DNA of 32,000 nucleotides, from assembly GCA_047651235.1 (NCBI GenBank), contig CP178758.1:1680001-1712000 (forward strand), in the 5' to 3' direction. The position numbers and the translations under genes are program-made. Below, in pieces: positions 12,976 through 29,673 of the stretch. The DNA comes from Candidatus Electrothrix yaqonensis. GTDB lineage: Bacteria > Desulfobacterota > Desulfobulbia > Desulfobulbales > Desulfobulbaceae. The notes under the pieces are model-generated. The model did not search any database. It worked only from the letters and a program-made list of their open reading frames with translations, and was not told the DNA's origin. Position 1 is the stretch's first letter; every line of letters starts with the position of its first letter.

Positions 12976-13227
12976 TTCTACTTTGGCACTCACAAAGGCT
13001 GTGGTAATAATTTGCAATTCCGTTGTTTCTCATATGCGAAATCAATCGAAGCTTGCCTCTTTTCATGCCGTTGACGAAGCTGTCTTATAACTTCATCTTC
13101 GTTTACATCTCGACGTGGAAGAATTGACTTGAGTAATGTTGTTATATCAGCGCAACTCAATAACGGGACACCGACTTGATGGTATAATCGTTGCTCGACC
13201 ATAAACAACATGGCCATCATGACCATA
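12976..13227 (-). mobile_element. inverted 252-bp fragment (3' end) of an IS701-like element
   Basis: Its reverse complement matches 13977-14227 with only one indel and one mismatch by hand alignment. It encodes an intact transposase C-terminus (...LLKSILPRRDVNEDEVIRQLRQRHEKRQASIDFAYEKQRN...). It ends with TTCTACTTTG, the same 10-mer found at both ends of the neighbouring copy. Confidence 0.75.
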
Positions 13228-13228
13228 A

Positions 13229-14227
13229 TTCTACTTTGTCAACCATAACCTTTTGATCTATTTGTAAAAACTTCTTGCAATATCCGGATAAAGTTGTATC
13301 TTTCATTAGGAAAATTTTATCGCTTTTTGATCAAGATAGCACCTGATAACAGCTATCAAAAAAATACCCGTCAATCGCCCTGATTATAACTTTATTCTTT
13401 TTATGAACGCTCCCAGCCCCGAAAAAAGAAGTCCCCATGACAAATTCTTTGAGTTGACCGGCATCGCCCGGCAACTTACGTCTTTTCACGAAAGATATCA
13501 TCTCTTTTTTAAGAGACATACAGTAAGTTTGTCAGATAAAGCATTCCAATACTTGAAAGGTTTATTCCAGGCTGACAAAAAAACATGGAACGTATGGAGG
13601 AAAAGGTTCCGGGCGTTAAATATGAGCCCCTCCAGTATTTTCTTTCCGACTCGAACTGGGATTGGCGTCCTGTAAACAACCAAGTAGCTAAAGATGCGGA
13701 TAACATTTTTGGAGGAAAGGAAGATAGCGCTCTTTTAATTGATGAATCCGGGATACCCAAAAAGGGTAAAATGTCTGTTGGGGTTTCTCGTCAATGGTGC
13801 GGGCAGCTTGGTAAAACCGACAACTGTCAAGTAGTAGTGTTTGCAACTTTGGGATATGGTCGCTTTTCAACGCCGATCGACTGTCGGCTGTATTTACCGA
13901 AAAGCTGGACGGATGACAAGGAACGTTGTCTTAAGGCTAAGGCTCGGGGATGGCTGGCTTGGCATCATCATATGACTATGGTCATGATGGCCATGTTGTT
14001 TATGGTCGAGCAACGATTATACCATCAAGTCGGTGTCCCGTTATTGAGTTGCGCTGATATAACAACATTACTCAAGTCAATTTTCCACGTCGAGATGTAA
14101 ACGAAGATGAAGTTATAAGACAGCTTTGTCAACGGCATGAAAAGAGGCAAGCTTCGATTGATTTCGCATATGAGAAACAACGGAATTGCAAATTATTACC
14201 ACAGCCTTTGTGAGTGCCAAAGTAGAA
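13229..14227 (+). mobile_element. IS701-like element, internally deleted and frameshifted (non-autonomous)
   Basis: The termini share the inverted 10-mer TTCTACTTTG (13229-13238; reverse complement at 14218-14227). The transposase reading is MNAPSPEKR...FQADKK, then a frameshift in an A7 run near 13578, then MERMEEKVPGVKYEPLQYFLSDSNWDW...LIDESGIPKKGKMSVGVSRQWCGQLGKTDNCQV. It then jumps to the C-terminal GWLAWHHHMTMVMMAMLF, so the central catalytic part is missing. Confidence 0.75.
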
Positions 14228-14700
14228 ATATTCATTGCGACGGCAAAACTCTCCGGGGAAGTTTCGATAACATGAAGGATATAGCTGGAGCAACATAATT
14301 TGAATATGCCTACAAGAGGCATAAGTTTTGCCTTCACGCCTTTCAGACAGCTGATCCTGTATTCAGTTTATACTGCTCCAGCTATATTAATCAGCTTCAG
14401 ATATTGAGCGCTTTTGCCGGCGACCGCGCTGTCGTTCTCGGCCATGAAGAAATCAGGGAGAAAAGCAATGAAATCCCGGCGGCGCGGAAACTGATGAAAG
14501 AACTCGGTTTATCCGACCGCATTTGACCGCTCCCGAATTCGTTGCAATCCGCACATATTTGCAAAACTGAGAAGCTTTGCTCTCAATATTCTTCGTAAGA
14601 ACAAGGTGAAAAATGTCAGCCGGGAGCTTTTCAGGAACTGTATGGATATAAATCGTCTGTTTGATTACGCCGGGATTTTCTAGAATTGAACAGCCCTGGG
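14228..14700 (+). pseudogene. ISAs1-family transposase remnants (5'-truncated, internally deleted, MITE-disrupted)
   Basis: Hand translation gives NIHCDGKTLRGSFDNMKD, then the MITE, then (I)NQLQILSAFAGDRAVVLGHEEIREKSNEIPAARKLMKELGLSD, then RIRCNPHIFAKLRSFALNILRKNKVKNVSRELFRNCMDINRLFDYAGIF*. These are typical ISAs1-family blocks from memory. A possible end sequence AATTGAACAGCCCTG lies near 14690-14700. Confidence 0.65.
14282..14384 (+). mobile_element. 103-bp MITE, copy 1 (TA target duplication, 11-bp perfect TIR TAGCTGGAGCA)
   Basis: Flanked by TA at 14280-14281 and 14385-14386. Removing the element plus one TA restores ...NMKDINQLQILSAF... in the ISAs1 reading frame. Confidence 0.8.
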
Positions 14701-14745
14701 GGTGAACCCGGCTCTGCTCTGAGTATGAGGAGTTGCAGCAAAGCC

Positions 14746-15031
14746 TTATTTATGCTGCTCGTGCAGCTTGGTGCGAACGGCCTTCAAGGTTCGACGGTGT
14801 GCTCCTAACTTAGGATGTCTGATGCGCTCTTCAAATTTTACAGCATGGCTGATATATAACTCCGCTTTGGCAAAGTCACCTTGGTCTTTGTGGATCAAAC
14901 CCATATTCCAACTACTTGCAGTCATACCAATTTTGTCACCAATCTCACTACTTATAGCTAAGCTCTGCTGTAAATACTTCAACGCAGCAATCACCTTGGG
15001 TATCATAAACGCCACCTATTGCTCTGTAAAA
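14746..15031 (-). pseudogene. C-terminal stump of a TPR-repeat protein
   Basis: ALKYLQQSLAISSEIGDKIGMTASSWNMGLIHKDQGDFAKAELYISHAV has TPR_12-like periodicity. A second frame just upstream reads ...YRAIGGVYDTQGD. This implies a frameshift near 14995 and truncation near 15035-15045 where the next IS fragment begins. Confidence 0.5.
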
Positions 15032-15110
15032 GCTAAAATTTAGGGTGCTGTACCTAAAACTAATATGGCTATTAGTTACGCAGTTGATCAGATTCTGTTA
15101 ATATGTCGCC

Positions 15111-15440
15111 ATGAATAAATCCAAAGTAACAGAATACGATTACATAGATTTTCTGATCGGTACCCAGAAAGTTTACAGTTGCACTGAAGCGGAACGTGTT
15201 CAACCGGGTGAGGCAATCGGTCCTTCCCATGACGCATTCACCCGGCAGCTGCACCGCCTTTTTCCAAGTACTGATCGACTCTGGACTGAAGCCGAAGATC
15301 ATGTTGAGCTGAGCAAAGGGTATCTGATCGGTGACGACAGTACGTTGGACAAACTTTACAGTCGCAAAATCGAGCTGGTAACCCGCCATTGGTCCGGCAA
15401 ACACAAAAAGGCTGTTTCAGGTATCAACCTGCTGACCCTG
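15111..15440 (+). pseudogene. N-terminal fragment of an IS4/IS701-like DDE transposase
   Basis: MNKSKVTEYDYIDFLIGTQKVYSCTEAERVQP...LIGDDSTLDKLYSRKIELVTRHWSGKHKKAVSGINLLTL is the conserved N-terminal third of a widespread DDE transposase group. It stops abruptly at about 15440, where IS630-type sequence takes over. Confidence 0.6.
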
Positions 15441-16073
15441 TCCCGGCAATAGAGAACCATCCTGAACGTGTTGATTATGAGTATGAGCGTAACGGTACCG
15501 CCAGTATTTTCATGTTTATCGAGCCGTTGTCAGGCCGGCGTGAAGCCACTGCCCGTCCCCGGCGGACTAAAACAGATTGGGCTGTCGAAGTGGCCCGGCT
15601 CCTTGAGAGCCGCTGTGCGGAATGTAAAAAAATCACGTTGGTCTGCGACAATCTCAATACTCATACAAAGGGAGCGTTGTATGAAGCTTTCAGTCCGGAT
15701 CGTGCCCGTGCATGAGTACGCCGAATTGAGTTTTGTTACACGCCGAAACATGGAAGCTGGCTCAATATAGCTGGAGCAGTATAAACTGAATACAGGATCA
15801 GCTATCTGAAAGGCGTGAAGGCAAAACTTATGCCTCTTGTGGGCATATTCAAATTATGTTGCTCCAGCTATATAGCTGAAAACGAGCTGAGTTCCATGAC
15901 CAGACAATGTCTTTCTGGTCGTCGTATCGGAGATATCGAGACGTTACAAAAAGAGATTGCCTCATGGTCAACTGATGTGAACAACAAACAGTCAACGTGG
16001 TGTCGATTGGCAAATGAAAATTTCTAACGCCCGGTGCAAATTAAAATCCGTTTACCCTAAAATTAAGTCGTGA
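15441..16073 (+). pseudogene. C-terminal half of an IS630-family transposase (nonsense codon, MITE insertion, frameshift)
   Basis: The reading is ENHPERVDYEYERNGTASIFMFIEP...ITLVCDNLNTHTKGALYEAF, then an in-frame TGA at 15713-15715, then RRIEFCYTPKHGSWLNIAENELS interrupted by the MITE at 15768. A frameshift near 15985 precedes VDWQMKISNARCKLKSVYPKIKS*. Confidence 0.75.
15768..15870 (-). mobile_element. 103-bp MITE, copy 2 (inverted relative to copy 1)
   Basis: Its reverse complement is identical to copy 1 at 101 of 103 positions by hand alignment. It is flanked by TA at 15766-15767 and 15871-15872. Excision with one TA restores GSWLNIAENELS. Confidence 0.8.
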
Positions 16074-16227
16074 CGGAGCACTAATTTCTGCACATCGCTT
16101 CCATACTTCCCCTGAACACTAATAAATGACCCAAATCGATCAATTTGAAAGTGTATTTCGGGATGCTGCACATGTACCTTTCGGCCGTGACACAGAGGGC
16201 TACAGCTCCTGATGCAGCCCTGAAATC

Positions 16228-16515
16228 TCAGCCGACGACCTTGGGTACCACAAAGGCTTCCCCGTTTTCCTGCGGGGCATTGGCCAAGGCTTTTTCTCTC
16301 GGCAGGGATTCCCGCACCTCATCTTCCCGAAAGGCGTTGACTCTGCTCTGCGTATGGGTGGTGACCGGGACGCCCTCGGTATCCAGCTCGTCCAGTTTGG
16401 CCACATAACTGAGAATGGTGTCCAGCTGCGGTGTCAGCTTTGCAATTTCATCTTCTGTCAGTTCAAGGCGGGCAAGAGCTGCCACCCGTTCAACTTCCTG
16501 TCTGGTTATTTTCAT
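16228..16515 (-). CDS. gatC: Asp/Glu-tRNA amidotransferase subunit C
   Basis: MKITRQEVERVAALARLELTEDEIAKLTPQLDTILSYVAKLDELDTEGV is a canonical GatC sequence. Start taken at MKIT (16515). Confidence 0.9.
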   Translation of the reverse strand: MKITRQEVERVAALARLELTEDEIAKLTPQLDTILSYVAKLDELDTEGVPVTTHTQSRVNAFREDEVRESLPREKALANAPQENGEAFVVPKVVG

Positions 16516-23801: not shown

Positions 23802-23938
23802 TCTATTTCTCCTTGCCGCTGTTTCTGCAGCGAATTGTCAATTATTCAATATTGCGTGGTCCTGCGATCGTAATCTCTGATATAATTTTACACTTAAAAT
23901 CTCATAGTTTACCGAACCATTGTCCGATTGCTTTCTCT

Positions 23939-24073
23939 TTACAAAATTCCCAGGATATGGATATCGTCTTTCAAGAGTTCACTGAGGAAACCTTCCAGGA
24001 TGTCGAAATTGGCCTTGCTCCGCAGGAGCTTTTTCATGGCCCAGTCAAAGCTGACGAGTTTTCGGGTTGGCAT
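23939..24073 (-). pseudogene. 5' remnant of an Rpn/PDDEXK_2 nuclease gene (nonsense codon, then decay)
   Basis: Hand translation from ATG 24073 gives MPTRKLVSFDWAMKKLLRSKANFDILEGFLSELLKDDIHILGIL*. The residues after the TAA (RESNRT) still resemble the expected ...SESN.. continuation. It is below the ORF-track length cut-off. Confidence 0.6.
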
Positions 24074-24090: not shown

Positions 24091-24948
24091 TTAGGGCTTC
24101 ATCTTTCTGAACGCAGCAATATGGTCTCTGACTTCAGGATCGACCTTGTCATCATCGGCAATCTTGCGCGCCAAGGCCAAACGGCAATCCACTGCATCTT
24201 CCTGTTTTTCTCCCAGCAAGTGTAATCGCTTGAGAATCGCCTTGCCGTTCAGAATCCGATTTACTTGATGCCATTGGTTGACAGGATCATCGTTGTCGTC
24301 ACCGGCAAAACACGCAGCCTTGTTTATTTTTTCATCCAGCTCTACTGAATCAACGCCTTGCTTTTTCAAACTGGTTCGCAAGTCCTGAGACGTGCCCGAT
24401 AACCCGGCCATACTATCGCTGACTTTTTTCTCACCCTTAACATGACAACAGGCATCAGCAGCTGTGAGCACGGTAAATAACTCAACTTCATCTGATGACA
24501 ACGGAATTGGTGCAGGTCGTTCCTGGACATTGCCAAAACGGTCGGCCTTGACGGAGGCAATAATATCCGGTTCCAGCAGCAGGTAGTTTTCTATCTCCCA
24601 GCGACTAAGCACCTTGATATTCTCTCCATATGGCTGACAGGCCCTGAAGTCGCTATCGTCATACTCCCACCAGCACTGCCAATGACGATCTTTCAGCAGA
24701 ACATCGCGGTCAACCAAGCCGACACTTTTAATTCCCTTCTCCTTGTCATTATTCACTTTCCTGATGACCTGATTACAGCCGCCACCCTGCCCTTTTTCGC
24801 CAGCAGAGCGAAACTCTATATTCTCATCATAAAACCAACGATCGCCAATAATCACCCTGTCTTCTTCGGATTCCAGATAAACAACCACCCGGCTCAGATA
24901 GGATTTCTCTGCGAACTCCGTTGCTGATTTATCTTTGAAGGCCGTCAT
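24091..24948 (-). CDS. DUF4435/Toprim-like protein (AriB-like, OLD-family-type nuclease domain)
   Basis: Acidic Toprim-type motifs are VVVYLESEEDRVI and VGLVDRDVL, followed by WEIENYLLLEP, which is typical of DUF4435. The start is 9 nt after the upstream ATPase stop. Confidence 0.65.
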   Translation of the reverse strand: MTAFKDKSATEFAEKSYLSRVVVYLESEEDRVIIGDRWFYDENIEFRSAGEKGQGGGCNQVIRKVNNDKEKGIKSVGLVDRDVLLKDRHWQCWWEYDDSDFRACQPYGENIKVLSRWEIENYLLLEPDIIASVKADRFGNVQERPAPIPLSSDEVELFTVLTAADACCHVKGEKKVSDSMAGLSGTSQDLRTSLKKQGVDSVELDEKINKAACFAGDDNDDPVNQWHQVNRILNGKAILKRLHLLGEKQEDAVDCRLALARKIADDDKVDPEVRDHIAAFRKMKP

Positions 24949-24957
24949 ACTCGAACA

Positions 24958-26124
24958 TTACTCCATGTTCTCTTCTATAATTTCGCCACCCTTACGTAAT
25001 CCCTTTTCTTTATGCTCAAACCCGAAGGCCCGCAGCATTTCTATGGAATGCGTGGCAAGAATAATGGTGATTCCCGGATATTCCTGAGCAAACTCGCGCA
25101 ACTGTTTCATCAGGCGTTTCTGCCAGTTCGGGTGGAGATGAATTTCCGGCTCATCAATCAGGATAATAGAATTGCGGGTGCAGTGCGCCCCAATACGCAG
25201 GAAGAGCTGGACCAAGTTCTTTTCTCCACTGCTCAACCGGTCCAGTCCATGCTCCTGGCCCTTGGAAACAACGATTGCCTCCGGCGGCGTTTTACGTACA
25301 CCTTTGAGAAAGGTCGTGCTGCCCTGAAAGACGCGCTTATTGATAATATCAACGGCTTTTTCCAGGCGACCATCGTCCAGCCATTTCATCCAGACCAGCA
25401 CGTTATCTAAAGAATTTCCCCAGGATTTGCTGTGGGAAGAAAATTTTCGGACAGGGCTGTAGCCCCAATAATCAGGTTCGGAAATCCGTCGCCTTTGCGA
25501 GGTTATCTTCGGAATGTTGCGGTATGCACTGAAGTGGAGTAAGGTCGGAAGTCCACAAGAACTTATCTCAAAATTATCCGGGTCAGCCCCTTCCCGCTGG
25601 CGGAACAGCGTTTGTATTTTTTTTCTTGTGACATGATTCTGAGATATAAAACGAAAGGTTCCTTTCGCTCTCCATTGAAATCCTCTTTTTTCCTGTCGCT
25701 CCGCCCCATGCTTGTGCAAATCTTCGTCGCTCCAGACAAAAAGACGATCTTCGGAAAATTTACCAGTCTCATCAGAAAAATTCCCGGCCAACAAGGAAAG
25801 AACTATATTTCGAGGTGTATTATCATCTTCAACGACCTGTACAAGTATATCCCATTGAACAGCAAGCTCTCCGTTGTCCAAGCCCTCCACGCCGCAAGAG
25901 GTCATTTCTTCCTTGCCAAGCATCCCCATAAGAGCTGTCATAATCTCCAGCACGGTTGTTTTCCCCCTGCCGTTTTCTGACATAAGGAGAAAAACATTGC
26001 ATGGCTTTCCCTCTTCATCTGTGAAGTCTATCTCATAGGGATTCTCTGGAAACGGTCCGTTTCCTTCGATTCGGAGGCGTAGAGGTTGGAAGGCATTGAT
26101 GACTGGAATGGTTATTTTATCCAT
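24958..26124 (-). CDS. ABC/SMC-type ATPase of the AAA_15/AAA_21 group (AriA-like)
   Basis: Walker A ENGRGKTTVLE, signature LSSGEKNLVQL, Walker B IILIDEPEIHLHP and H-loop ILATHS. About 250 aa are inserted between Walker A and the signature. Confidence 0.75.
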   Translation of the reverse strand: MDKITIPVINAFQPLRLRIEGNGPFPENPYEIDFTDEEGKPCNVFLLMSENGRGKTTVLEIMTALMGMLGKEEMTSCGVEGLDNGELAVQWDILVQVVEDDNTPRNIVLSLLAGNFSDETGKFSEDRLFVWSDEDLHKHGAERQEKRGFQWRAKGTFRFISQNHVTRKKIQTLFRQREGADPDNFEISSCGLPTLLHFSAYRNIPKITSQRRRISEPDYWGYSPVRKFSSHSKSWGNSLDNVLVWMKWLDDGRLEKAVDIINKRVFQGSTTFLKGVRKTPPEAIVVSKGQEHGLDRLSSGEKNLVQLFLRIGAHCTRNSIILIDEPEIHLHPNWQKRLMKQLREFAQEYPGITIILATHSIEMLRAFGFEHKEKGLRKGGEIIEENME

Positions 26125-26146
26125 TAACCTTTTAATTCTATTTGCA

Positions 26147-28156
26147 TTATGAAGCTACAGGTATTTGAACCTCTTTAAGGCTCACTGCGCTATTCGCAAT
26201 AGAAATCTCAACTAATTCGTTCGCCGTTTTCTCTTTAGCAAAAAGAGCCTCTCGTTCTAATTTGAGTTTTTCATCGATAAAATTATGCCTGAGTTCAAAC
26301 TCTGTAAATATCTCACTCCATGTTTTTGCATAAAATTTTATTCTTCCGTTATCTTGATATAGTAGCAGCCCTTTTTCTCCGTGAGGTTTATTTGTCTCTA
26401 TTTGTACTTCAATAAAACCAGATGTATCGAACCGTTTCCCAACAAGATAAAATTTCCACGTAATGTTGGAAGCATTAAACTCAGGCTGTTTCTTTATAAC
26501 GTCAATATATCGAAGAACCTGAAGATATTCTTTTTGTCCCAGGTTAATTCGATTATGCTTCAACTCAACAACTACATTTTCAATTGTATCGGTCAATTTA
26601 TTTTGCCGACATGCGAAAATATCCATCTCTCTATTTTTATCGAGATGTTCGATTTTCCGGTCATAAATGGTTCCTGATATTTCGTAAACATATCGCCTTA
26701 ATGCTTCCTCAAACTTAGGTTCAGCCGCCGTAACAAGATGATATTGCTCTCCAAAAAACCAATAATTATTTTCTATCAACGTCTGCAAATGATTAACTTC
26801 ATTTGCTTTCAAATCGCTATTAAAAACTAATTCTTTCAAGATGTAATAGGTTCTATATCTATCCTCAATCAATTTGATTGTAGAAATAATTCTATTCAAC
26901 CTTGTTGACTTAAAAAGACCTGCAAGCTCCTCTCTTACTTCCGACTCTAAACTTGCCACTTCTTCCAAAATAGTGAGAATATGCTCACGCTCATTTGAAT
27001 CCAGCAGTAAATCTAAAAATCTAACAAAAGTTTTCTTTTGTTCTAAGTTGAGATTAGAAAATATTTTTGGCTGAACTTCATATAAACTAATTATAGTATC
27101 CTTCAATTCATTTTTGCGGAGTACATCCCAATCATTTTTATATTCTGGAAGAATACCATTCTTCTCAAACTCTTCGACCATTGCAAGAGCATAATCTCTC
27201 AAATAAGGCTTTCTTTTTAACCTTAAATAGTTACCAAGCTCTTTATGTAAGAATTTATATTCAACAGAATTCCTTGCCTTTGTAAAAAGAGACAATTGAG
27301 TAGAATCCTCGTTTGAGGAAAAATCAAAATCTTTAAAAAAATCACTAACAATAAAAACACTATGATAGAAATGATCTCCTTTTCTATTCATAGTTGTATA
27401 CCTCTTAAATATCTCTTTCTGAGAGCTATCAAGATAATAAAATCTTGAATATTCTTTATTTAATGGTTCTCGCCATTGAAAAAAACGTATCCCAAAAAAA
27501 GTCTTTTCTTCGAAGTTAAGTTCAAACTCATCGTTATCACATATAAGCTGTTCATAGTCTATCGGCTCCCCATTCACTATCAATCTGTAATCTTTTGATT
27601 TATTCAACTCGAGAAACCAACAAAATTCTTTCTTTAAATATGGAATAATGTCTCCTTCCATATCATTCTGGCTTATAGTAAGGTTATTAAAAATTACTGT
27701 GGTACCTGACCTAGATTCTTCTTTCTTATTTTTTTCTACTTGATACCTTTTTAGATCCCAAGCACTAACGCTTATCACCCCACTTGTTATTCCACCATTT
27801 TCATAAGCAGTATGCCATTCGGCATGATCAGCAAAGGTGAAAAAGGTTAGCCTTCCTACTCCATTTTTTCCATGTAGTATAGACGAATGCTTAGGAGATT
27901 GAATCTGTATTGTCTTCTCTGAGTCATAAAATTTATCAAATTTCTCTTTTAAATTATCAAGATCTATCCCGTGTCCATCATCTTTTATTGAAAGCTGCTC
28001 TATTACCCCAAGCTTGTCCAACTCATAATTGATTTCTACTGTTCTTGCTTTTGCGTCAAATCCATTCCATATATATTCGGCCACTCCGTGGTAACATTTA
28101 TACCTTTTAAGGACTTTCTTGATCCCTGAAGATGTTATTTTAACGTCTCGTTTCAT
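26147..28156 (-). CDS. GHKL (Bergerat-fold) ATPase fused to a C-terminal PD-(D/E)xK, DUF4263/Shedu-like nuclease module (669 aa)
   Basis: N box E27-x3-N31-x2-D34 (VAEYIWNGFDAKA), G1 DDGHGI, G2 GKNGVGRLTFF, then SGTTVIF. The C-terminus reads NYWFFGEQYHLV...MDIFAC...VVVELKH...EYLQVLRY (D...ExK...Q..Y). Sampled 60-nt lines are about 27-35% G+C. Confidence 0.7.
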   Translation of the reverse strand: MKRDVKITSSGIKKVLKRYKCYHGVAEYIWNGFDAKARTVEINYELDKLGVIEQLSIKDDGHGIDLDNLKEKFDKFYDSEKTIQIQSPKHSSILHGKNGVGRLTFFTFADHAEWHTAYENGGITSGVISVSAWDLKRYQVEKNKKEESRSGTTVIFNNLTISQNDMEGDIIPYLKKEFCWFLELNKSKDYRLIVNGEPIDYEQLICDNDEFELNFEEKTFFGIRFFQWREPLNKEYSRFYYLDSSQKEIFKRYTTMNRKGDHFYHSVFIVSDFFKDFDFSSNEDSTQLSLFTKARNSVEYKFLHKELGNYLRLKRKPYLRDYALAMVEEFEKNGILPEYKNDWDVLRKNELKDTIISLYEVQPKIFSNLNLEQKKTFVRFLDLLLDSNEREHILTILEEVASLESEVREELAGLFKSTRLNRIISTIKLIEDRYRTYYILKELVFNSDLKANEVNHLQTLIENNYWFFGEQYHLVTAAEPKFEEALRRYVYEISGTIYDRKIEHLDKNREMDIFACRQNKLTDTIENVVVELKHNRINLGQKEYLQVLRYIDVIKKQPEFNASNITWKFYLVGKRFDTSGFIEVQIETNKPHGEKGLLLYQDNGRIKFYAKTWSEIFTEFELRHNFIDEKLKLEREALFAKEKTANELVEISIANSAVSLKEVQIPVAS

Positions 28157-28244: not shown

Positions 28245-28997
28245 TCATTCTTCCCCCAACTCCGCTATCTCATCCACCGACAACCCAGTAGCCTCAGCCA
28301 CAAACTCACGAGTAACACCTTTCCGTAGCAAATTCTTTGCAACGAGCCGCGTTGCCTCCTTGGCCCCTTCCTCAATCATCCTGGCCCGCTCCTCCGGCGA
28401 AAGATGATCTCGCCGGATGGATTCAAACAGCTTCTGAATAACCCCTTCAGGATACTGACTCTCATCCACCTCTTCATCAAGGGTATCATTAATGGCCCGC
28501 AACCATTCCCGATACGGCTCCGGTGTTTCCTTGAAAACGTATTTTGGACAGAGATAAATGACTTTATGGGAAATTTCGCCGAGCGGATTACCTGCCAGAT
28601 CATGTGGATCAAAATCAACCACTGCAATATCCCGCTGATGGCGGTCGCTGGAGGTGAGGACAACCACAGTATACACCGTCAGGGGAGGACGATAATTTTT
28701 AGAGCTTGCAACCTGTTCCAGCAGAGCCGCGCAATGATAATAGAGAAAACGATCATAATGATCGTTGGTCCGGGCATGTTGGATATCGACAATAAGCCGA
28801 TGCTCATTGTCTTCCGCAAAGAGATCAAAGCGGGGTTTGACGTAGCCAATGGGTGGATCAAATTCCTTTTCTGTCTCCACACGGTCAAAGCTGACAGGCC
28901 GACCGATCATAGCCTGGGCAAAGGCAGTGAAAATCTCCGGGTCGCAGAAGGCCTTCTTAAAAACAACACCGTATTTCAAAGATGCTACTTTCTTCAT
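28245..28997 (-). CDS. Rpn-family PD-(D/E)XK nuclease ('putative transposase', PDDEXK_2-like), full length
   Basis: LKYGVVFKKAFCDPEIFTAFAQAMI N-terminus, FDLFAEDNEHRLIVDIQH nuclease core and a helical C-terminal tail. It lies 88 nt upstream of the GHKL gene on the same strand. Confidence 0.7.
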   Translation of the reverse strand: MKKVASLKYGVVFKKAFCDPEIFTAFAQAMIGRPVSFDRVETEKEFDPPIGYVKPRFDLFAEDNEHRLIVDIQHARTNDHYDRFLYYHCAALLEQVASSKNYRPPLTVYTVVVLTSSDRHQRDIAVVDFDPHDLAGNPLGEISHKVIYLCPKYVFKETPEPYREWLRAINDTLDEEVDESQYPEGVIQKLFESIRRDHLSPEERARMIEEGAKEATRLVAKNLLRKGVTREFVAEATGLSVDEIAELGEE

Positions 28998-29055: not shown

Positions 29056-29673
29056 TCACCCCTTCCGCATCAAGGCCGGATAATCCTCGCGCAGGAAATT
29101 ATGGAGCAGCACCGGCCCAACACCGGTCATGATGGATTCGGGATGAAACTGCACGCCCTCCACATTCAGGGTCTTATGGCGTATACCCATCAACTCACCT
29201 TGATCTGTATGAGCTGTAACCTCAAGGCAATCCGGCAGAGTGGATTCCTCCACCACCAACGAATGATAGCGCATTCCGTCAAAAGGATTATCCAGACCGT
29301 AGAACACCCCGCGACCATCGTGGTGCATGGGACTGGTCTTGCCGTGCATCACCCTACCCGCCCGGATTACCTTACCACCAAAGGCCTCGCCGATGGATTG
29401 GTGCCCAAGACAAACACCGAGGATAGGAATCTTGCCGCTAAAATACTGAATAGCCTCCACAGAGATTCCCGCTTCCTTGGGGGTGCAGGGACCAGGGGAA
29501 ATCAGCAAGCGGTCCGGTGCCATATCAGCAATTTCCTGCACCGTGATCTTATCGTTGCGAAAGACCCGGATATCCGGCTGCTGCCAGTCCGCAGGCGCAC
29601 CCGGAGGGGCGGCAGCAAGGGTCTGGACAATATTAAAGGTAAACGAATCGTAGTTATCAATAAGAACAATCAC
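29056..29673 (-). CDS. trpG: anthranilate synthase component II (glutamine amidotransferase, TrpG/PabA)
   Basis: IVLIDNYDSFTFNIVQ, the catalytic ILGVCLGHQ, and FHPES. GTG start 2 nt after the trpE stop. Confidence 0.9.
   Translation of the reverse strand: MIVLIDNYDSFTFNIVQTLAAAPPGAPADWQQPDIRVFRNDKITVQEIADMAPDRLLISPGPCTPKEAGISVEAIQYFSGKIPILGVCLGHQSIGEAFGGKVIRAGRVMHGKTSPMHHDGRGVFYGLDNPFDGMRYHSLVVEESTLPDCLEVTAHTDQGELMGIRHKTLNVEGVQFHPESIMTGVGPVLLHNFLREDYPALMRKG

Follow-up and report, generated by a model that had tools for sequence, protein, structure and literature searches.

A GHKL-type nuclease gene beside an orphaned PARIS-like ATPase/Toprim pair in a variable defence slot of Candidatus Electrothrix yaqonensis

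This analysis concerns three neighbouring genes, ORF1, ORF2 and ORF3, in a 32,000-nucleotide stretch of Candidatus Electrothrix yaqonensis (assembly GCA_047651235.1, contig CP178758.1, positions 1,680,001 to 1,712,000), here called the window, and compares them with described defence systems. On the side of ORF1 these are the nucleases that carry a GHKL ATPase. The paraMORC3 proteins were defined by Iyer, Abhiman and Aravind (2008) as a GHKL domain, an S5-type domain and a C-terminal nuclease of the RecB family of the restriction endonuclease fold, with an E-D-ExK pattern; nuclease-bearing members from Bacteroidetes and Proteobacteria are often standalone genes and others lie within restriction-modification (R-M) operons (PMC2292703). 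The Shedu nucleases include a class with HATPase_c_3 and a middle domain (Gu et al., bioRxiv 2023.08.10.552793). Within that GHKL class (Type 1D), VcSduA from VSP-II of Vibrio cholerae WASA, a GHKL plus DUF4263 protein that earlier carried the annotation paraMORC3, gives phage protection from one gene alone and depends on both E27 and K557, the E27A and K557A mutants being inactive (Adams et al. 2025, PMC12137116).

The systems to be compared with ORF2 and ORF3 are split ATPase/nuclease pairs. PARIS (AriA/AriB), a class 4 OLD-type split ATPase/Toprim system, occurs as an autonomous pair in phage and satellite hotspots. It is triggered by anti-restriction proteins such as Ocr, and the released AriB cleaves host tRNA. 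Septu pairs an ABC ATPase, PtuA, with an HNH protein, PtuB. A PARIS-like ATPase plus DUF4435 module is nested in the StySA BREX locus of Salmonella LT2 (PMC9009780), and a survey of BREX and BR systems has proposed that nested PARIS-like OLD-ABC/TOPRIM modules are backups against anti-restriction proteins (Nucleic Acids Research 2026, PMC12839542). For Dnd phosphorothioate (PT) modification, the fusion of DndE to HerA/FtsK (DndEi) has already been described, and many Dnd modification clusters (~45%) are without DndFGH and may use other nucleases, the search for such partners being flagged as open (PMC6435447; PMC10853773). The known PT restriction partners are DndFGH, SspE, SspFGH and PbeABCD, and a 2024 reappraisal lists HKD, HNH, REase, URI, HEPN and PIN proteins as PT-associated neighbours (PMC10853773).

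The three genes are best explained as two independent defence modules, ORF1 on the one hand and the ORF2-ORF3 pair on the other, which were brought together when one cassette replaced another in a variable slot beside trpG and an Rpn-family gene. We put the probability of this reading at roughly 72%. The features of the locus are as follows, all on the minus strand.

29056 to 29673, minus strand: trpG, a conserved chromosomal anchor adjoining the variable defence slot in cable bacteria
28245 to 28997, minus strand: intact Rpn-family gene (PDDEXK_2 / HTH_Rpn_C; Pfam PDDEXK_2 1.3e-7, NCBIfam TIGR01784 2.8e-11)
26147 to 28156, minus strand: ORF1, 669 aa, putative GHKL ATPase-middle domain-nuclease protein (Pfam HATPase_c_3 2.5e-16; GC 0.33)
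26125 to 26146, minus strand: ORF1-ORF2 spacer of 22 nt, a product of the cassette replacement; the same junction is found in locus L165
24958 to 26124, minus strand: ORF2, 388 aa, OLD/AriA-type ABC ATPase (AAA_21 and AAA_15 above cutoff)
25576 to 25866, minus strand: 291-nt tract within ORF2 (codons 87-183), identical to Ca. Electrothrix marina (locus L003)
24091 to 24948, minus strand: ORF3, 285 aa, divergent DUF4435-type Toprim protein (weak DUF4435 match, PADLOC AriB match, AriB fold match)
23924 to 24073, minus strand: remnant of a second Rpn/PDDEXK_2 gene, its first 50 codons followed by a stop (found by tblastn)

Comparison loci carry L numbers throughout. The ORF listing reproduced exactly the three reading frames and the gaps of 22 nt and 9 nt between them that had been given in the preliminary description. 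The genes differ in composition, GC being 33% for ORF1, 47% for ORF2 and 48% for ORF3, with 54-57% in trpG and trpE.

ORF1 and the GHKL-type nucleases

Judged from its sequence, ORF1 is a self-contained protein made of a GHKL ATPase, a middle domain like those of Hsp90, MutL and MORC, and a RecB-like PD-(D/E)xK nuclease. Its HATPase_c_3 match recurred in 36 of 36 homologues. In alignments of 45 and of 36 homologues the four Bergerat motifs (I, E27/N31/D34; II, D59/G61/G63; III, G96/G99/G101; IV, T152) and the nuclease residues (D512, E531-L-K533 and Q546xxxY550, also E470/E479) were invariant or nearly so. The predicted structure (pLDDT 75.9) matched the N and M domains of Hsp90/TRAP1, MutL and MORC2/3/4 in Foldseek over ~400 columns, with E-values of 1e-10 to 1e-9. 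The nuclease region is formed by the C-terminal 230 residues, whose fold gave weak hidden Markov model (HMM) matches only, to HSDR_N_2, NucS and YraN, and a weak similarity of ORF1 to the BbrUII/HgiDII restriction-enzyme family was also seen. Among the 36 diverse homologues HSDR_N_2 matched 35, while SduA_C matched three, weakly (best E 0.01). Sequence and profile searches of the PDB with ORF1, ORF3 and their family profiles returned nothing beyond the GHKL N-terminus, and the profile of the ORF1 C-terminus matched no PDB sequence even though solved SduA structures are deposited there; by sequence the relations to Shedu and to AriB are therefore tentative.

The architecture is nevertheless that of GHKL-type Shedu and paraMORC3. 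ORF1 likewise has a HATPase_c_3 GHKL domain with motifs I-IV, an Hsp90/MutL/MORC-like middle domain and a C-terminal PD-(D/E)xK nuclease with D...ExK; it is likewise ~670 aa long, organised as a single gene, and of a sporadic, horizontally spread family common in Bacteroidota. Its catalytic glutamate is E27, as in VcSduA, where it was changed in the E27A mutant. The difference from Shedu is that its signature, DUF4263/SduA_C, was not detected, and the likeness to VcSduA is one of architecture. With paraMORC3 it shares the pattern of GHKL, middle domain and RecB-type nuclease, as compared by description. ORF1 may thus be counted as a new addition to a single-gene family that is already on record, an assignment made from architecture and not a proven family membership.

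More than 1871 proteins were found to be homologous to ORF1, mostly from Bacteroidota. A scan of 185,579 species genomes gave 347 relatives, and the best 80 of these 347 loci were examined; they span Bacteroidota, Chloroflexota, Firmicutes, Cyanobacteria, candidate phyla radiation bacteria and Archaea. Searched with HMMs of the ORF2 and ORF3 families, all 80 loci proved free of ORF3-like genes, and the ORF2 model made two matches only, both weak and non-adjacent. Pfam searches of 74 immediate downstream neighbours listed 25 families, with none of AAA_21, AAA_15 and DUF4435 among them. Only one downstream neighbour recurred, HsdS (Methylase_S), the specificity subunit of type I R-M systems. It followed 9 of the 74 ORF1 homologues, and some of the family therefore belong to type I R-M operons. 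The Methylase_S gene stands directly 3' of the ORF1 homologue in L022, L024, L027, L030, L034, L036, L038, L048 and others, often with overlapping stop and start. Most ORF1 homologues are standalone, and at the level of genomic context ORF1 appears to work as a single gene.

In two Electronema loci, PJ and VV (L002 and L007), the ORF1 homologue stands alone directly after trpE-trpG. A 63-bp direct repeat of the trpG 3' end (97% identical; L002:5856-5918 and L002:8019-8081) brackets the homologue in Electronema PJ. This repeat looks like an insertion signature and marks a discrete insertion at a trpG-adjacent hotspot. The homologues stay at a GC content of ~0.30 in Electronema too, against 0.54-0.64 in the flanking DNA. 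With ORF1 itself at 33% GC and ORF2 and ORF3 at 47-48%, its composition marks it as a foreign gene, acquired horizontally from a low-GC donor. Full-length relatives are also carried by 41 plasmids and by two phages of Pasteurella, with no ABC or Toprim neighbours. The relative in Pasteurella phage Pmp14 (L171:3995-5953), like that in Pmp3, is full-length and distant, with ~24% identity over 94% of the query. In these temperate phages it sits between tail genes, in a moron-like position.

The ORF2-ORF3 pair and its Dnd context

ORF2 matched AAA_21 (1.2e-15, 58.8 bits, cutoff 27) and AAA_15 (2.5e-14, 54.1 bits, cutoff 32.1). Its Walker A (G52..K55T56T57), signature (L297SSGEK302), Walker B (D324E325) and H359 were invariant in six homologues. 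PADLOC matched it best to PtuA models and also to AriAB and AriA, and AriA (8ux9, 8.6e-7) was among its best PDB sequence matches; the PADLOC and the PDB AriA matches cover only the C-terminal ABC motifs, ~85 residues. For ORF3, DUF4435 was the sole family match, at 17.8 bits (E=0.003) and so below the cutoff of 27. Across the ORF3 family DUF4435 was found at E<=0.01 in 16 of 22 members (best 1.6e-8), and E26, D80 (nearly invariant)-R81-D82 and R116-W-E-x-E-N-Y122 were conserved in the 22 homologues. PADLOC gave AriB at 4.1e-5. The ORF3 family profile matched no PDB sequence. An AlphaFold2 model of ORF3 (pLDDT 87.6) was compared by Foldseek with 350,542 PDB chains, and the top fold match was AriB (8v46_D, E 0.037, probability 0.92, TM-score 0.40).

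The pair therefore has the layout of PARIS, an AAA_15/AAA_21 ATPase gene followed by a DUF4435-type Toprim gene, and ORF3 keeps the Toprim Glu and DxD as AriB does. The differences are that ORF2 has 388 aa against 464 aa for AriA, with a match limited to the C-terminal ABC motifs; that ORF3 falls below the Pfam cutoff and reaches a TM-score of 0.40 only; and that the ORF2-ORF3 family nearly always forms genes 4 and 5 of a dndC-dndD-dndEi cluster, where PARIS is autonomous. Fold and HMM evidence together make a modest case for a PARIS-like pair of an OLD/AriA-type ABC ATPase and a divergent DUF4435 Toprim protein. The likeness to Septu lies in ORF2, whose best PADLOC matches are PtuA models. 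In sister strains an HNH gene does lie directly upstream of the ATPase gene, but it resembles PT-DNA-binding type IV enzymes and a Toprim gene follows the ATPase; in the window an HNH gene is absent and ORF2 is partnered by the Toprim protein.

The motifs reported in the preliminary description, namely the four Bergerat motifs and D...ExK...Q..Y of ORF1, the Walker A, signature, Walker B and His motifs of ORF2 and the Toprim acidic motifs and WEIENYLL segment of ORF3, all hold across the homologues given above. Of the Pfam families named there, HATPase_c_3 for ORF1 and AAA_21/AAA_15 for ORF2 were above cutoff, whereas DUF4435 for ORF3 was not and DUF4263 was undetected. The broad label of PARIS-like stands for ORF2-ORF3, the PADLOC matches to AriA/AriAB and to AriB agreeing with it. 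The GHKL-nuclease partner, which had been called undescribed, does have described counterparts in paraMORC3 (PMC2292703) and in the GHKL class of Shedu (bioRxiv 2023.08.10.552793; PMC12137116).

At the same chromosomal site in other Electrothrix (L012, L013 and L167) the order is trpE-trpG-Rpn-DndC-DndD-DndE::FtsK-ABC-ORF3-like. DndC (358 bits, cutoff 290) and DndD (275 bits, cutoff 246) both pass their NCBIfam equivalog cutoffs, and in L012 the end of DndEi and the start of the ABC gene overlap by 4 nt. The five genes come in this order also in more distant relatives, from Desulfosarcina and other lineages. A metagenome scan gave 71 loci with ORF3 relatives, of which 54 had enough upstream sequence to be informative. 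In 48 of these 54 the gene immediately before the ABC gene was DndEi and two more had a rearranged or partial dnd context; an ORF1 homologue was upstream of the pair in none. The five-gene cluster of DndC, DndD, DndE::HerA/FtsK, OLD/AriA-like ABC and DUF4435-like Toprim was observed at L012:1973-8858 and also in L008-L010, L013, L167 and ~48 of L094-L164. In 26 non-identical complete clusters the distances of the ABC and ORF3-like proteins correlated with those of DndC, DndD and DndEi (Spearman 0.51-0.73; Mantel test, 0 of 2000 permutations), and the ABC-DndEi value of 0.73 was near the 0.76 of DndD-DndEi.

The ancestral context of ORF2-ORF3 is thus a bona fide dndC-dndD-dndE::FtsK module. The window differs from it in that dndC, dndD and dndE are absent. 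No close DndC from the 3.74-Mb chromosomal contig of YB6, the Candidatus Electrothrix sp. whose protein is 100% identical to the window ORF1, was present among the best 120 DndC matches, and a divergent copy elsewhere is possible. ORF2-ORF3 is the remnant of a five-gene phosphorothioation cluster, which the preliminary description had missed together with the deviant GC of ORF1. Like the PARIS-like modules nested in BREX, the pair is an ATPase plus DUF4435 unit inside an epigenetic-modification defence operon, and the BREX pair is unneeded for modification. The host system of this subfamily is however Dnd phosphorothioation and not BREX methylation, with a near-obligate linkage and co-divergence with the dnd genes. 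No OLD-ABC/Toprim pair was found as a Dnd partner in the PT literature covered, including the main text of PMC10853773; Krishnan et al. 2020 (ABC ATPase classification) or Zheng et al. 2016 (DndEi) might report it.

The ATPase-first, Toprim-second order and the 9-nt spacing are conserved, and the pair occurs without dnd in the window, L003, L104, L116, L161 and L166. The family is small, with 34 clusters, mostly from Electrothrix. ORF2 has 95% amino acid identity to L003 and 80% to L012. Between the window and L003, both dnd-less, dN/dS was 0.056 for ORF2 (dS 0.50) and 0.075 for ORF3 (dS 1.1), and all catalytic motifs were kept, so that the pair is maintained without dnd under purifying selection. 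It represents a Dnd-dedicated and divergent form of the split architecture of PARIS/OLD, and in this genome it has become an orphan. The tract at 25576-25866 is the longest exact match of ORF2 to L003, 291 nt in a background of ~85% identity, whereas codons 87-183 are only 50-63% identical to the dnd-linked alleles of L012 and L004. This identical tract shows recent recombination in the variable insert of the ATPase.

The dnd-less pairs in L116 and L161 adjoin a 750-aa protein in a cobalamin-gene context and a VWA protein, in which no defence domain was recognisable. The genes upstream of the dnd-less pair of L098 (L098:3041-6689) encode a 689-aa protein that combines HATPase_c_3 with a HATPase_c of histidine-kinase type, and in addition a receiver-like protein and a metallo-beta-lactamase-fold protein. 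This locus was considered as a second case of a GHKL gene with the pair and was rejected, the 689-aa protein having no nuclease and 28% identity to ORF1 over the N-terminal 150 residues only. Its arrangement is two-component-like and of paraMORC type and not that of an ORF1 homologue.

The slot next to trpG

The genes trpE-trpG lie 5' of the slot in L012, L013 and L166 as they lie 5' of the lone ORF1 homologue in Electronema L002 and L007. Window 30104-28369 aligned with positions 1-1739 of L012 and L013 at 85% identity, and window 26092-24086 aligned with L012 6884-8863. Between these, 2.3 kb of the window, comprising the Rpn 3' end and ORF1, stands in place of the 5.1 kb of dndC-dndD-dndEi in L012. 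The left limit of homology was at window 28369 against the dnd-type L012 and at 28250 against the HNH-type L003; homology on the right started at window 26102 (L003) or 26092 (L012), 8-11 codons into ORF2. The left recombination breakpoint lies within the 3' part of the Rpn gene or at its stop codon, and the right one 8-11 codons into ORF2. On either side of the slot, it is E. marina (L003) whose arrangement comes nearest to that of the window.

Among the Electrothrix loci the slot holds dndCDEi in L012, L013, L004 and L167, an HNH gene in L003 and L166, and the GHKL gene in the window and L165. The HNH gene of L003 encodes a 326-aa HNH_2 protein that resembles phosphorothioated-DNA-binding restriction endonucleases (NF045808, 131 bits, below the cutoff of 180), and L166 has the same HNH state at the trpG site. 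HNH_2 in the place of dndCDEi was observed at L003:3850-4830, L166:5874-6854 and L122:1090-2031. Strains with HNH_2 may have given up PT synthesis and turned to PT as a target.

Locus L165 is a 3.3-kb contig from another, sister sample that is 84.6% identical overall and contains the Rpn gene, an intact ORF1 and the same 22-nt spacer. Its ORF1 has 88.5% amino acid identity to that of the window, keeps all 15 motif residues and gave a dN/dS of 0.10. Its ORF2 ends after codon 57, just past Walker A, and ORF3 is gone; at L165:2378-3190 the truncated ORF2 is followed by an unrelated 205-aa gene without a Pfam match in place of the rest of the pair. No other case shows as plainly that ORF1 and the pair do not move together.

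In the sampled Electrothrix contexts the variable slot is bordered by Rpn genes, and in L166 trpG is separated from HNH_2-ABC-Toprim by three Rpn paralogues in tandem (L166:3329-5829; 274, 266 and 274 aa). The island had been described as flanked by Rpn nuclease genes. The upstream gene (28245-28997) is indeed intact, but downstream, where a second Rpn/PDDEXK_2 gene flanks the pair in E. marina and L167, only the 50-codon remnant at 24073-23924 (minus strand) is left. It was identified by tblastn with the 309-aa downstream Rpn of L003, residues 1-50 of which matched at 92% identity (E 4e-24).

Other features of the window were as follows. A 24-nt similarity (75%) exists between the starts of ORF2 and ORF1 (26096-26119 and 28119-28142; common core TAAAATAAC); as a recombination microhomology it was rejected, being too short to tell from chance. 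Positions 13000-16500 are ORF-poor, of 41-47% GC, and contain DDE_5 transposase fragments (13585-14100 and 15111-15452) which are apparently degraded insertion sequence elements. At the left end of the window, 664-1707 on the minus strand encodes a 347-aa SAP-domain protein in a region of 40-43% GC, which may be another foreign segment. The Rfam scan and the tandem-repeat scan of the window were both empty.

Relation between the two modules

The separate origins of the two modules are seen in their GC and in the size and taxonomy of their families, more than 1871 proteins mostly from Bacteroidota for ORF1 and 34 clusters mostly from Electrothrix for ORF3. ORF1, acquired horizontally from a low-GC donor, stands in this lineage where the three dnd genes upstream of the pair were replaced. 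By analogy with GHKL enzymes and VcSduA it may dimerise through its ATPase domain, with ATP binding and hydrolysis gating a clamp-like middle domain that would license the C-terminal nuclease to cut invading DNA. Loss of the dnd genes orphaned ORF2-ORF3, on which purifying selection has nevertheless continued. If the pair works as PARIS does, the ORF2 ATPase would hold ORF3, the Toprim nuclease, in an inactive state. A cue from the phage, such as an anti-restriction protein, would then release or activate ORF3, and infection would be aborted; in the ancestral cluster this would make the pair a backup of PT modification.

Several observations weigh against two independent modules or against the identities proposed for them. 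DUF4263/SduA_C gave no match in ORF1 at E<=0.1, and so its likeness to Shedu is one of architecture only; the likeness of ORF3 to AriB is weak, with a TM-score of 0.40 and a Pfam score below cutoff. The ORF1-ORF2 junction is old enough to be common to the window and L165 at 84.6% nucleotide identity. A promoter and terminator scan, of little weight since promoter-like sites were fewer than in shuffled sequence, recognised neither between the three genes, and given the shared orientation and the 22-nt gap the genes may well be co-transcribed; it is plausible that co-transcription would be a by-product of the insertion. In every Electrothrix genome sampled, the slot before the pair is occupied by some defence function directed at DNA, be it Dnd, HNH or a GHKL-nuclease. 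Finally, two alleles of the ORF2 middle segment track the dnd-linked or dnd-less context, and this could be adaptation to the partner.

The last two observations are those expected if the pair were a portable backup effector for whichever DNA-targeting defence lies upstream, firing when that defence is inhibited and layered with it without forming one complex. The tight spacing upstream of the ABC gene (22 nt in the window, 12 nt in L003, a 4-nt overlap in L012), the 291-nt tract common to two dnd-less loci and the published concept of PARIS-like backups in BREX loci (PMC12839542) also agree with this. Against it are L165, where ORF1 was retained and the pair lost, and L116 and L161, where the pair stands beside genes without a recognisable defence domain, and in the loci surveyed ORF1-family genes were never with the pair elsewhere. 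The correlation of allele with context comes from four independent loci only and linkage to the recombination tract would explain it as well. We consider such a general guard role to be unlikely. A fuller proposal is that the pair represents a Dnd-coupled class of OLD-ABC/Toprim effector, a further PT partner, and a portable guard re-coupled to Dnd, then to HNH and then to the GHKL-nuclease with ATPase codons 87-183 as the adaptor, so that ORF1 and ORF2-ORF3 would be functionally layered and not one ancestral system; this too is held only as a doubtful suggestion.

A further explanation makes ORF2-ORF3 the classical restriction arm of PT, an OLD-type nuclease cutting DNA that lacks phosphorothioate, or else a part of the modification machinery, now inert or silenced in this genome. 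The near-obligate linkage to dndC, dndD and dndEi, the co-divergence with them and the overlap of the DndEi stop with the ABC start in L012 would all follow, and many Dnd clusters are without DndFGH so that other nucleases are possible (PMC6435447; PMC10853773). Without dnd, however, a cutter of unmodified DNA should kill the cell or soon disappear, and yet the motifs are kept and dN/dS is 0.056 and 0.075 at dS values of 0.5 and 1.1; dnd-less pairs recur in L104, L116, L161 and L166; and the closest fold and HMM relatives, AriB and AriA, are abortive-infection proteins and not restriction enzymes. The persistence of the pair without dnd argues against a simple nuclease cutting unmodified DNA and fits a PARIS-like, trigger-dependent effector, which makes this explanation improbable.

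The preliminary description had favoured one integrated immune system of three components, with two ATPases and two nucleases, and had itself tied that proposal to recurrent synteny. The shared orientation, the very short gaps and the conservation of the junction in the second sample, L165, are what such a system would show. No ORF3-like gene was present in 80 loci with ORF1 homologues, however, and no ORF1 homologue lay upstream of the pair in 54 informative loci, the sole GHKL-type neighbour, in L098, being different and without a nuclease. There is also the discontinuity in GC between ORF1 and ORF2/ORF3, L165 lost the pair while ORF1 stayed under purifying selection, and autonomous relatives are documented for both modules. 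By the synteny criterion of the preliminary description a three-component system is as good as refuted, and it is highly improbable. The alternative of two stacked systems, which had also been mentioned, is favoured by synteny, by GC and by L165.

The reading of two independent modules joined by cassette replacement carries a caution for genome scans, in that tight spacing and co-orientation within a defence island do not alone show one system. The site next to trpG in cable bacteria offers a natural allelic series of Dnd, HNH, GHKL-nuclease and pair-deleted states, which shows turnover of defence cassettes with mapped breakpoints beside genes for Rpn recombination-promoting nucleases. More interesting than the three-component claim is the Dnd-coupled PARIS-like pair itself, of which no description was found in the PT literature covered, with the two papers named above as places where it might be reported. 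The five-gene dndC-dndD-dndE::FtsK-ABC-Toprim cluster is a candidate source of a partner or backup effector for those Dnd clusters that are without DndFGH.

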